Shown: in pieces, positions 9,233-15,450 of the stretch
Position numbering within the stretch: the stretch's first letter is position 1
How the letters are laid out: each line of letters opens with the position of its first letter
DNA from: a plasmid
Direction: 5' to 3' (one strand)
Assembly (NCBI RefSeq): GCF_053078305.1
Contig: NZ_CP166875.1
DNA length: 64,000 nt
Notes under the pieces: model-generated
What the model was told of the DNA's origin: nothing
The model's input: the letters and a program-made list of their open reading frames with translations, nothing else
Database searches by the model: none
Made by a program: the position numbers and the translations under genes

Positions 9233-9268
9233 CTAACGTACAATAATTCCGTTTCCCAAACCGACCCC
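9233..9268. repeat. solo Tn3-type terminal inverted repeat (right-end orientation)
   Basis: CTAACGTACAATAATTCCGTTTCCCAAACCGACCCC; reverse complement GGGGTCGGTTTGGGAAACGG... resembles the IRs at 9667, 9819 and 15300. Confidence 0.45.
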
Positions 9269-9546
9269 TCAGTGTTCTGGCTGGAAGTCCTCAGTACACG
9301 CTCGTAAGCGGCCCTGACGGCCCGCTAACGCGGAGATACGCCCCGACTTCGGGTAAACCCTCGTCGGGACCACTCCGACCGCGCACAGAAGCTCTCTCAT
9401 GGCTGAAAGCGGGTATGGCTTAACAGGGTGGGAATGGGATAGGCGAAATCTATCAATCAGTACCGGCTTACGCCGGGCTTCGGCGGTTTTACTCCGGTAT
9501 CACATGTAACCACAGCGTACCGCCTTCCATGCCGCTGGCGCGGCAT
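9269..9546. repeat. ~270-bp repeat family, copy B
   Basis: Near-identical to 7388-7662. Confidence 0.85.
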
Positions 9547-9610
9547 ATCATGGTGACGATATCTGAATCGTTATATACTGTGTATATACGTGGTAATGAC
9601 GAGGTGATAA

Positions 9611-9703
9611 ATGGCACAGGTTAATATGAGTTTAAGAATCGACGCTGAACTGAAGGATGCTTTTATGGGGTCAGCCTGGAATTCGGAAAATAAACCACGT
9701 TAA
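9611..9703 (+). pseudogene. remnant of an RHH antitoxin-like gene cut by a Tn3-type IR
   Basis: MAQVNMSLRIDAELKDAFMGSAWNSENKPR*; reading frame runs into the IR starting at 9667. Confidence 0.4.
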
Positions 9704-9856
9704 GACTATTTTTTAGCCAAATGACTGTCAGGAATCCGGACGGTCGGAACATTTCGTACAGCCTTTACGTTCAGTGAGTTAGCTGGCCTGGATGTAACCA
9801 CTCGTTCAACTCAATTCTCTTAGCGTGGGAAAATTTCCGTTTTCCAAGCGGACCCC
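9667..9856. mobile_element. Tn3-derived miniature element (two 38-bp IRs ~190 bp apart, no genes)
   Basis: Left IR GGGGTCAGCCTGGAATTCGGAAAATAAACCACGTTAAG (9667-9704); right IR reverse-complements to GGGGTCCGCTTGGAAAACGGAAATTTTCCCACGCTAAG (9819-9856); no matching 5-bp flanks. Confidence 0.5.
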
Positions 9857-9875
9857 TAGAAGAAGGGAAGCGATA

Positions 9876-10292
9876 TCAAGCCCAGGGATTAATAATTGAT
9901 ACTCCGGTTAATTCAAAATCACCAACATTTCTGGTTACAACCGTCATCCCATGTACCAGCGCCGTTGCTGCGATCAATGCGTCTCGTTCACTGCGCCTGT
10001 CGGGAACATGTAAACGAGAACAACGTAATGCAACCGCAGTATCTACAGGAAGTATCTTATCAGAAAACGCTGGTAACACATGCTGATCCATCCAAGAACG
10101 TAGCATAATCCCTTGTCGCATATCTCGACGTTCAACTTGTAATATTCCCTGTTCAAGTTCCATTATGGAAATAACAGAAATAAAGAAATCTGCCGCATCT
10201 GTATGCAATACCCATTTTGCAACATTATTATCTATACGTCCTGTCCGAGCCTTCCGTAGCTCAGAGATAACATTAGTATCAAGAATATACAC
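9876..10292 (-). CDS. vapC: VapC PIN-domain toxin
   Basis: 138 aa MYILDTNVISELRKARTG...; PIN acidic residues; overlaps vapB by 1 nt. Confidence 0.85.
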   Translation of the reverse strand: MYILDTNVISELRKARTGRIDNNVAKWVLHTDAADFFISVISIMELEQGILQVERRDMRQGIMLRSWMDQHVLPAFSDKILPVDTAVALRCSRLHVPDRRSERDALIAATALVHGMTVVTRNVGDFELTGVSIINPWA

Positions 10293-10546
10293 TATAAAAA
10301 CTCCGCAGGTTTTAAACTAACCGTAATACGAGGCGGTTCAAATTCAACTGCATCAGCATCGGGCATCGCCAGAATGTCAATGAGAGTTCGTCGTTGTTGC
10401 GTCAATTTTCGGTATTCTTCGATACTAAGAAGTACATGTGCGGTTTTACCCCGATCAGTAATAAATACTGGACCATAATTCGTGGCGCGTTTGGCTCGAG
10501 TTACATCTTGATTAAGTTCCCGACTGGATAGGGTTGTAATCTTCAT
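10292..10546 (-). CDS. vapB: VapB antitoxin
   Basis: Start taken at MKITTLSSRELNQDVTRAKRA...; upstream of and overlapping vapC. Confidence 0.75.
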   Translation of the reverse strand: MKITTLSSRELNQDVTRAKRATNYGPVFITDRGKTAHVLLSIEEYRKLTQQRRTLIDILAMPDADAVEFEPPRITVSLKPAEFL

Positions 10547-14800: not shown

Positions 14801-14902
14801 TCTTTTGAAGATCAAGTTGCGATCACAAATTTGGACAGTCTTTTGGAGGGAGTAGACCCACTAAGTGATATCGGAGATATTGAGTCCGAATATGACGGTT
14901 AA
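11864..14902 (+). CDS. tnpA: Tn3-family transposase
   Basis: 1012 aa, size and position next to resolvase inside Tn3-type IRs; AT-rich codon usage. Confidence 0.75.
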   Translation: MQKYKKRISILTKSEINELYQVPSFNPVERDEFFSLDISLKREIDKIINIESRVYLILITGYFRYKPVIPEFTLKDVKRDVKYIIQTYYKNESTNLNLNIPKSTKYRLVKRMLSTLGFEQLTPSIKNELSERLNDVATICMEPKYIFDELLAFLGQRRIALPGYSTVQNLVSDALNFERKRTINILSKRIYPATAQKITSIIHDDGILNSIRGYNYSTRDFSASEIENELRTHNVISSIYYEIKDIINSLGISQGNMEYYATIVKHSTTFRLKRHPKWQGILYLCCYLYFRYREINDKIITAFRYLVKKHKDASVLFAKARATEEIDLINKKLKFASKIFNFFVDSNIEDSIPFGYVREKVFSLISKDDMHLVSEFFDKNKIDVIEYQWQYIDSHHLKIANSIRKLFLAIDIVYDNEKSVIGQQITAAKDDLRGKGKLDAKDLRVIHPSEKNYIVKEGEINTQRFEFHMYSRVSNHLENGVFYAAESEQNKRLEDDLIERSYWHKNKSILIEKTGLERLITPITQTLNELENTFSDKLARITIGINSDANEFVKKQPHSNRLQWSLASKKWKTSIDNPIYNQIKNIGIVDVMKYVNNETNFLSVFNAISSRKNNLEADYNDLLACIFGNGANYGVHRMASASDRSIGILRDVNDKFIRPETTGMANTVISDAIANLSVYKYWTINEDSPFGSVDGQKHTCRINTFKARYSAKYFRKGKGVSAMTLVSNHVPLSTVVISPNEYEGHFAFDLLYNNTSEIQPKSLATDNHGINNVNFAILDIFGYQFSPRYAKFKKIFNELFDVILESDKLIIKLKKQFNFKLIEHEWENIQHIICSLSRKTTIQSTVVKKLSNTKRSNKTLAALREYDRVIKCIYVLDYADNKTLRQFVQQALNRGEAYHQLRRAIASVNGNQFRGGNDYQIDQWNDCARLIANCVIYYNSAILSRLVEKFEKENNKKAIDVLANLSPVAWRHILLGGNYSFEDQVAITNLDSLLEGVDPLSDIGDIESEYDG

Positions 14903-14968
14903 CAACATGATAAATAATGGTTTTTATGCTAAGAGTGAGACTTTTGGAGGAAATGGGCGCAGAACCCC

Positions 14969-15214
14969 ACTGTGAGACGTTTGTGCAAGGCATTGTTCGG
15001 CAGAACCGGAAGCCAGTGGCTGGTTGTTGAAGTTTTTGGGGAGAAGGGGCGTCAGCACCGCAGCGCGGACAGCAATCCGGAGATGGTGGAAAAAATGGCT
15101 GCCAGATATCGTCATGCCGCCGAACTACACTGGTCCGCAACGCTGGCAGAAATTGAACGGGTAAAGCGGCTTTATCAGACGAAAATTAAGAAATCCAAAA
15201 AAGAAGTGGGTTGA
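14969..15214 (+). pseudogene. 3' part of the interrupted hypothetical gene
   Basis: MRRLCKALFGRTGSQWLVVEVFGEKGRQHRSADSNPEMVEKMAARYRH...; first ~125 bp duplicate 10945-11068. Confidence 0.55.
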
Positions 15215-15242
15215 CTGCCATTGTTATTCTTTTCCTTCATCA

Positions 15243-15274
15243 TTAATGCTAATGTATGCATACATTAGCATTAA
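15243..15274. repeat. 32-bp perfect palindrome (copy 2)
   Basis: Identical to 10661-10692. Confidence 0.9.
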
Positions 15275-15299
15275 TGATGGTGCGTTGAACGTACAATAA

Positions 15300-15450
15300 G
15301 GGGTCCGCTTGGAATTCGGAAATTTTCCCACGCTAAGTGAATTGAGTTGAACGAGTGGTTACATCCAGGCCAGCTAACTCACTGAACGTAAAGACTGTAC
15401 GAAATGTTCCGACCGTCCGATAACCATTTGGCTTACTTCCGTACATTTCC
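15300..15450. repeat. Tn3-type 38-bp IR plus ~115 bp subterminal sequence, inverted copy of 9704-9856
   Basis: GGGGTCCGCTTGGAATTCGGAAATTTTCCCACGCTAAG followed by sequence reverse-complementary to 9704-9818. Confidence 0.7.

Follow-up and report, generated by a model that had tools for sequence, protein, structure and literature searches.

Tn3-derived miniature elements and an intact Tn3-family transposon at module junctions of an IncF plasmid

Introduction

Non-autonomous Tn3-derived miniature elements (TIMEs) are short and gene-less, end in 38-bp inverted repeats (IRs) of Tn3 type, occur mainly on plasmids and are missed by annotation pipelines (Szuplewska 2014, PMC4133298; Gomi & Yano 2026, PMC13367494). 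TIMEs measure about 50-500 bp, and their insertion is marked by a target-site duplication of 5 bp, sometimes 6 bp. Among those closest to the DNA described here are IS101, a 209-bp TIME of pSC101 that is mobilised by Tn1000 (gamma-delta), TIME244, which like IS101 keeps a res-like region, and MITESen1, a 256-bp TIME listed in ISfinder, in whose interior no similarity to res was found (PMC13367494). Two TIMEs may also move together with the DNA between them as one unit, called TIME-COMP, and in the known cases they are most commonly inversely oriented (PMC13367494). Here we analyse positions 9,233 to 15,450 of a 64,000-nt stretch of a plasmid (contig NZ_CP166875.1, assembly GCF_053078305.1), the whole of which we call the window. 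The plasmid belongs to IncF, as window positions 5270-7663 match a RepFII/FIC repA gene and the region downstream of it in the comparison record L003. Tn3-family debris has collected in the interval, which lies in the accessory region beside this replicon and holds three TIMEs, in the sense of the two papers cited first, and one intact 3.9-kb Tn3-family transposon. The three elements share with known TIMEs their small size, the absence of genes, the 38-bp Tn3-type ends, the plasmid location and the lack of annotation; unlike them, they are not flanked by 5-bp direct repeats. The cluster is best read as a set of junction scars in a mosaic plasmid, that is, as ordinary mobile-element debris of a known kind.

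Results

Inverted repeats and miniature elements

Related sequences were searched for in PLSDB (72,556 plasmids) and in 5,426 complete Escherichia coli genomes; comparison records are cited by L-numbers, L006 being NZ_CP045714.1. A scan of the window for Tn3-type ends (pattern GGGG...ACGYTAAG) found IRs at 9667-9704 and 15300-15337 on the plus strand and at 9819-9856 and 9232-9268 on the minus strand, within 1 nt of the four positions given in the original prediction, and a further pair at 28605/32392. Identity between IRs was counted as identical positions of 38, a measure that gave a mean of 18 (standard deviation 2.5, maximum 25) for shuffled pairs. The pattern scan and the identities, counted also against the IRs of TIME244, IMU, IS101 and MITESen1, show that the ends are of Tn3-family type. 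The four IRs had been taken for copies of one subfamily, but they fall into two types. The IR at 15300, GGGGTCCGCTTGGAAWWCGGAAATTTTCCCACGCTAAG, which recurs as the reverse complement of the one ending at 9856 (36/38), is called IR_A, and the IR at 9667, GGGGTCAGCCTGGAATTCGGAAAATAAACCACGTTAAG, is called IR_B; the two agree at 29-31 of 38 positions. The IR at 9232-9268 matches IR_A and IR_B at 25-28 positions and the IRs of MITESen1 at 30-31. It is also not a solo end, as had been thought, since its partner, GGGCTGCGTTTGGGAAACGTACAATATTGTACGGTTGC, lies at 9035-9072. One more IR had been overlooked at 15465-15502; it is of IS101 type, its reverse complement begins GGGGTTTGAGGGCCAACCGTACGAAAACGTAC, and it agrees with the right IR (IRR) of IS101 at 32 of 38 positions.

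These ends delimit three elements of 234, 190 and 203 bp, all of them without a transposase gene and overlapped by short chance open reading frames (ORFs) only. The 234-bp element lies between the two MITESen1-type IRs. The 190-bp element, between IR_B and IR_A, is the gene-less miniature element that had been proposed, and it does truncate an antitoxin ORF, which is of yacA type and of which about 18 codons are left: identity between window 9269-9668 and L003 4001-4400 is 97%, and yacA is annotated at 4343-4612 of that record. The 203-bp element runs from IR_A to the IS101-type IR. The sequence said to be shared by the ends at 9819-9856 and 15300-15337 is real as well. It forms the arms of an inverted repeat (9737-9857 and 15299-15419) of 121 nt, 97% complementary and 5441 nt apart, each consisting of the 38-nt IR and 83 nt of subterminal sequence, and this similarity is far beyond chance.

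None of the three elements has a target duplication; the flanks are TTAAT/TCAGT for the 234-bp element, TTTAT/TAGAA for the 190-bp element and AATAA/ATCCT for the 203-bp element. Each of them stands where unrelated modules meet, namely a truncated yacB (yacB') and a repeat, a truncated yacA (yacA') and vapCB, and a hypothetical gene and a viperin-like cassette. Because they lack 5-bp target duplications and because each marks such a joint, we read them as probable scars of replicon fusions, deletions and recombination rather than of simple insertions, and the three TIMEs and the 3.9-kb transposon would have arrived by separate events. We assign a probability of about 0.8 to this reading as a whole, in which the TIMEs are junction scars, all four elements are of separate origin and no inversion took place. 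Recognition of these TIMEs, which are invisible to standard annotation (matches to them in PLSDB and RefSeq are all listed without a feature), explains several puzzling module boundaries in IncF plasmids and shows which toxin-antitoxin genes are truncated and probably dead (yacB', yacA'). It leaves the understanding of Tn3-family elements unchanged.

The ~286-bp family and its autonomous parent

In L002 a complete element was found, 286 bp long, with IR_A at one end and IR_B at the other. Alignment with this copy shows that the 190-bp element is a shortened form of it: about 96 bp have been deleted from the centre, between two CGAT repeats, and with them the whole of predicted res site I and a portion of predicted site II. 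When used as a query, the 286-bp sequence matched 2028 of the 72,556 PLSDB records (~2.8%), 597 of them near full length, and the copies fetched lie in unrelated backbones: IncF, IncI/K and IncC plasmids and an 8-kb ColE2-encoding MOBQ plasmid, none with the element annotated. Complete copies of 275-287 bp that are 69-92% identical were found in Xenorhabdus, Cedecea, Citrobacter and uncultured Enterobacterales. The IRs are closest to those of IMU (33/38) and TIME244 (31/38), and the interior matched none of TIME244, IS101, IMU and MITESen1, although the family does resemble IS101 and TIME244 in keeping a res-like region. The list of Enterobacteriaceae TIMEs of January 2026 (PMC13367494) does not include it, and a search of the open-access literature for the IR_A and IR_B sequences found them only as part of a polymerase chain reaction (PCR) primer. 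The family is prevalent and apparently unnamed. Target duplications were absent from the three window elements and from 6 complete plasmid copies; a perfect one, TAAAT, flanks one Xenorhabdus copy (L025).

The primer in question is the 'cva/cvi-F' primer used for avian pathogenic E. coli (APEC), TCCAAGCGGACCCCTTATAG (PMC8581539), which consists of the terminal 14 nt of the ~286-bp TIME IR and 6 nt of flank. Its site is at 1501-1520 of L011, the ColV plasmid p14EC017c. This common forward primer thus anneals to the end of a mobile element beside the colicin V locus and not to the cva/cvi coding sequence.

A degenerate IR_A/IR_B pattern, applied to one genome per species, returned 21 loci, and among these the IR was found beside tnpA-res-tnpR in Pantoea (L019), Vibrio furnissii (L035), Xenorhabdus bovienii (L038/L039) and a metagenome-assembled genome of Enterobacteriaceae (L022). 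The IR of this larger element, GGGGTCCGCTTGGAAAACGGAAATTATCCCACGCTAAG, agrees with window IR_A at 37 of 38 positions. Some 30 bp separate it from the 3' end of a tnpA gene of the Tn3 family (994 codons), which is followed by res and a divergent tnpR; in L035 the transposon lies at 10300-14100. Near-full copies of the transposon are carried by 196 PLSDB plasmids, and the TnpA sequences from Klebsiella, E. coli, Citrobacter and Enterobacter agree at 99-100%; the autonomous parent circulates in the same plasmid pool as the TIMEs. As to its name, the sources give 'Tn3 family transposase' only. Low-identity plasmid hits in Leclercia and Citrobacter, also considered as parents, yielded nothing.

The tnpR-tnpA intergenic region of the parent aligns with the interior of the TIMEs across three inverted-repeat subsites. 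The subsite adjoining tnpA is TGTACGAAACCGACCGGTTTCGGTCA, and at the corresponding position the E. coli TIMEs have an imperfect palindrome of 26 bp, TGTACAGAATTG-TA-CGATTTCGGACA. In Tn3 and gamma-delta, res site I adjoins tnpA. By analogy, TGTACAGAATTG-TA-CGATTTCGGACA is the predicted res site I of the family. Judged from these alignments, the ~286-bp family is a derivative of an autonomous Tn3-family transposon; it would have arisen from an IR-tnpA-res-tnpR element that kept both IRs and the three-subsite res and lost its genes. Such derivatives could move only by replicative 'paste-and-copy' transposition, with a cognate TnpA supplied in trans.

A hybrid element joined at the predicted res site I

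The 203-bp element is a hybrid. Its positions 15300-15484 match the first 185 bp of the 286-bp element of L002 (93.5%), and the IR_A at 15300 is closed 165 bp later by the IS101-type IR. The likeness to IS101 is confined to that IR, which shares the outer 16 nt of IRR bar one base and has its innermost 6 nt replaced at the joint; unlike IS101, the remainder belongs to the ~286-bp family. The element interrupts a MITESen1-type IR: window 14969-15299 is 99.4% identical to L003 6138-6469, and L003 continues with the rest of the interrupted repeat.

The junction between the IR_A half and the IS101-type IR occurs in 8 PLSDB records. A complementary joint is present in L006, which is 99.4% identical to window 15467-24020 (8.5 kb) and carries, to the left of the same IR, the IR_B half of a TIME. 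The window thus joins the A half, and L006 the B half, to the same GTAC, IS101-type IR and cassette, and both switches fall at the central GTAC (central TA) of the predicted site I. Because the hybrids are joined precisely in the middle of this predicted site, the sequences suggest a resolvase-mediated exchange at that point as the most likely origin of the 203-bp element.

The closure of this element also bears on the viperin-like cassette to its right, which had been supposed to be transposon cargo whose other end was lost. The element that begins at 15300 ends at 15502, ahead of the putative terminator of the cassette, so that the cassette lies outside it and the cargo reading is not supported. 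The cassette abuts the outer terminus of the IS101-type IR, the same IR and cassette are joined in L006 to the other TIME half, and a match to L008 starts exactly at 15503, without any IR. The pattern scan found no further copy of IR_A or IR_B in the window.

The 3.9-kb transposon and its flanks

The segment between the 190- and 203-bp elements had been described as a vapBC unit of 5.4 kb, but 3.9 kb of it are a complete Tn3-family transposon (Tn3.9 in Table 1), inserted in a hypothetical ORF. Its TnpA has 1012 amino acids and scores 604.9 bits with NCBIfam NF033527 (cut-off 500), its tnpR product has serine-recombinase matches below the family cut-offs, and its IRs pair over 34 nt at 88%. From its sequence it is an autonomous transposon, with a transposase, a putative serine resolvase and terminal IRs. 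Copies that are 99.4-100% identical are found in other contexts, in L002, L004 and L005 and in plasmids of E. coli, E. albertii and Salmonella, and four copies, each in a context of its own, are all without a 5-bp direct repeat.

In the window, the place where a 5-bp target duplication would be expected is taken by a direct duplication of 126 bp, which adjoins both ends of the transposon. The left flank is 98.8% identical to L001 and 95.1% to L003, the right flank 99.4% to L003 and 86.7% to L001, and by this measure the two flanks are from different plasmid lineages. The duplication would most likely have resulted from recombination, at res or by RecA, between two copies of the transposon that had been inserted 126 bp apart in diverged plasmids; the single insertions would be expected at AAAAA (position 11068, in the hypothetical ORF) and at ACTGT (position 10943). 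Coexistence of copies is seen in strain FHI_NMBU_11, where copies of the transposon that are 100% identical are carried by two plasmids and the cassette region by a third. The missing target duplication suggests that copies have exchanged their flanks, rather than that transposition follows another chemistry.

A further transposon of the Tn3 family, complete and minimal, occupies window positions 28605-32392, with tnpR at 28780-29412, tnpA at 29393-32359 and 38-bp IRs, GGGGCTCTGTGGGAATTTCTGCGATAACACCCGCTAAG; near-full copies are present in 60 PLSDB records. Both resident transposons were considered as a source of enzymes for the TIMEs and rejected, their IRs agreeing with those of the TIMEs at only 19-28 of 38 positions and their res regions having no TGTMCGAAA motifs.

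The 234-bp element and its resolvase-bearing relative

The 234-bp element aligns colinearly from end to end with MITESen1 (reference as given in Table S2 of PMC13367494), and the IRs of both are of one type, but only 175 of 229 positions are identical (76%), and its left terminus is degenerate (GGGCTG as against GGGGTC). Copies of MITESen1 are defined by at least 95% identity and at least 95% coverage to the 256-bp reference (PMC13367494); the 234-bp element falls below this identity and, by sequence, is a related family member and not MITESen1 itself. The element stands in place of some 16 codons at the 3' end of yacB; alignment with the intact gene of L002 and L004 breaks off at 9036. Near-full copies of the element are found in 325 PLSDB records.

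A larger relative is present in L006 (4781-5625). This element of about 845 bp has MITESen1-type IRs around a res-like region and a single gene, for a serine recombinase of 213 amino acids, in the order IR, ~142 bp homologous to the left part of the 234-bp element, recombinase gene and right IR. The left 142 bp and the right 51 bp of the 234-bp element align with it. On account of this alignment, elements of MITESen1 type look like derivatives of an IR-res-tnpR-IR element, from which the 234-bp element would have arisen through loss of tnpR. The family, for which no res similarity had been reported, is thereby linked to a relative that carries a resolvase gene.

A remnant of such an IR-res-tnpR-IR element, with the res-like region and the first ~7 resolvase codons, lies at 26907-27029 on the minus strand of the window; it is truncated and followed by unrelated sequence. 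A degenerate solo IR of MITESen1 type, TGTCCAGTTTGGATATAGATAATTATTGTACTAATAAG, is found at 22338-22375 (31/38 to the left IR of MITESen1), about 80 bp from a synteny breakpoint at 22454 seen in L008.

Junction scars and alternative explanations

Several points weigh against the reading of the cluster as junction scars with an exchange at res. The res subsites were assigned by alignment and by their position relative to tnpA and tnpR, and two kinds of hybrid joint are all that speaks for exchange at site I. The other half-site in this exchange falls within an IS101-type IR, and such an IR is not known as a res site; the cognate enzymes of the TIMEs are not encoded in the window. A 5-bp direct repeat flanks only 1 of ~12 complete TIME copies examined; the mobility of these elements is predicted from sequence. 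As regards the 3.9-kb transposon, PLSDB and the complete E. coli genomes yielded neither of the two single parental insertions.

Of the other explanations, the one that survives best is that the hybrids and the module junctions arose by homologous or microhomology recombination between dispersed TIME copies, with neither a resolvase nor a res site involved. We rate it somewhat below even odds. The joints share 7 nt of short homology (TTGTACG/TCGTACG), from which RecA or illegitimate recombination could have produced the same products, and the 190-bp form, a deletion between 4-bp CGAT repeats, indicates that microhomology events do occur in the family; that no cognate resolvase is encoded in the window agrees with it too. 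On the other hand, both independent types of joint fall on the central dinucleotide of a 26-bp palindrome that aligns with the tnpA-proximal res subsite of the parent, a placement that would be an unlikely coincidence over an interior of ~210 bp.

The most far-reaching form of the resolvase-mediated exchange would make the ~286-bp elements an undescribed family of res-bearing TIMEs whose site I serves as a portable crossover, at which a resolvase acting in trans exchanges whole modules of the accessory region, such as toxin-antitoxin pairs, colicin genes and defence cassettes, among IncF, IncI and Col plasmids. We think this unlikely. If it were true, it would explain both the near absence of target duplications and the finding of different TIME halves joined to the same neighbour. 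The family does supply a concrete candidate crossover site for plasmid mosaicism.

The outward-facing IR_A ends had been explained by intramolecular transposition or inversion. In such a model, one element transposed replicatively within the plasmid and inverted the 5.4-kb segment. Replicative transposition of this kind by Tn3-family elements is known to leave a copy on either side of the segment, in inverted orientation and each with the same end turned towards it, and the geometry fits, as two IR_A termini with nearly identical arms do abut 9857-15299. This much of the claim stands; the footprint itself does not, and we consider the inversion very improbable. Gene-order comparison, which had been suggested as a check, shows no inversion: L003, in which both elements are lacking, has the order Frpo-like repeat, yacA, yacB, exonuclease, hypothetical gene, palindrome and MITESen1-type IR, colinear with the window, and the segment is not inverted because order and orientation are the same. 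The two copies are unlike each other, 190 bp with a deletion of ~96 bp on the left and 203 bp with an IS101-type far IR on the right. Since the right copy keeps 65 bp (15420-15484) that are gone from the left one, it cannot be a replicative copy of it, and the flanks of the two elements show no reciprocal 5-bp repeats. Their distribution differs as well. The junction of yacA', the 190-bp element and vapC occurs in 8 PLSDB plasmids, in all of which the match ends at window 15276/7 and the right copy is absent, and the right junction was found in no record of PLSDB or of the 5,426 E. coli genomes. The left IR_A end is the older one, common to 8 plasmids; in the collections searched, the right one was seen on this plasmid only. 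That the two face outwards is a coincidence of two independent elements in opposite orientation.

Equally hard to credit is that the two elements moved vapBC and its neighbours as one TIME-COMP: a gene-bearing segment bracketed by two inversely oriented TIMEs of one family has the commonest TIME-COMP arrangement, but the outer IRs are heterologous (IR_B and the IS101-type IR agree at 19/38, the level of chance), the outer flanks TTTAT and ATCCT form no 5- or 6-bp direct repeat, the left TIME occurs with vapBC and without the right one in 8 plasmids, the two sides were acquired at different times, and the whole unit 9667-15502 is in no other record of PLSDB or the complete E. coli genomes.

Further features of the window

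Table 1. Features in and around the interval (window positions)
Feature	Position	Strand	Details
234-bp TIME, MITESen1 family	9035-9268		left IR 9035-9072, right IR 9232-9268
Second yacA-type antitoxin gene, first ~18 codons	9612-9666	+	cut off by the 190-bp TIME
190-bp TIME	9667-9856		IR_B 9667-9704, IR_A 9819-9856
vapC	9876-10292	-	ORF; RefSeq annotation of the identical region in L001; weak NCBIfam VapC match
Phd-type antitoxin gene	10292-10606	-	NCBIfam phd_fam above cut-off; RefSeq annotation in L001
Palindrome of ~40 bp, left copy	10660-10702		perfect; repeat search
126-bp direct duplication, left copy	10943-11068		99% identical to 14969-15094
Tn3-family transposon Tn3.9, complete	11069-14968		tnpR 11126-11719 (-), tnpA 11864-14902 (+), IRs 11069-11106 and 14931-14968
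126-bp direct duplication, right copy	14969-15094
Palindrome, right copy	15233-15280		repeat search
MITESen1-type IR, interrupted, inner 13-17 nt	15283-15299		cut by the 203-bp TIME
203-bp hybrid TIME	15300-15502		IR_A 15300-15337, predicted res sites III and II, left half of site I, IS101-type IR 15465-15502
Nudix/kinase/radical-SAM operon	15578-17575	-	outside the outer terminus of the IS101-type IR

The viperin-like cassette is an operon for a NudI-type Nudix hydrolase (248 bits, above the cut-off), a P-loop kinase annotated as deoxynucleoside kinase and a radical-SAM protein whose best NCBIfam match is prokaryotic viperin (84 bits, cut-off 180). A hairpin with a T-run at about 15525-15550, read by eye, is its putative terminator. 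Among the PLSDB records and the complete E. coli genomes, the complete operon occurs in one other record only, NZ_CP045714.1.

The two copies of the palindrome (core ATTAATGCTAATGTATGCATACATTAGCATTAAT) flank a hypothetical ORF of about 155 codons, and L001 and L003 have the two copies as well. The boundary at which vapBC replaces yacAB-exonuclease coincides with the left copy.

The two TIME families also meet elsewhere. They abut or interrupt each other in L002 as they do at window 15299/15300, and positions 2450-2710 of L014 and L015 (the IncFII plasmids p2019XSD11-92 and pKPC2_020002) hold a MITESen1-type IR, a 12-nt partial IR_A and a full IR_A whose element is truncated after ~210 bp.

A repeat of ~290 bp is present three times in the window, at 7378-7663, 9269-9590 and 17790-17944, the third copy being partial and the first one following the repA/ori region. 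It may resemble the ssi/Frpo-type single-strand signals of F-like plasmids; Rfam returned no RNA family for window 7000-18500. MITESen1-type IRs adjoin this repeat in the window and in L002 and L003.

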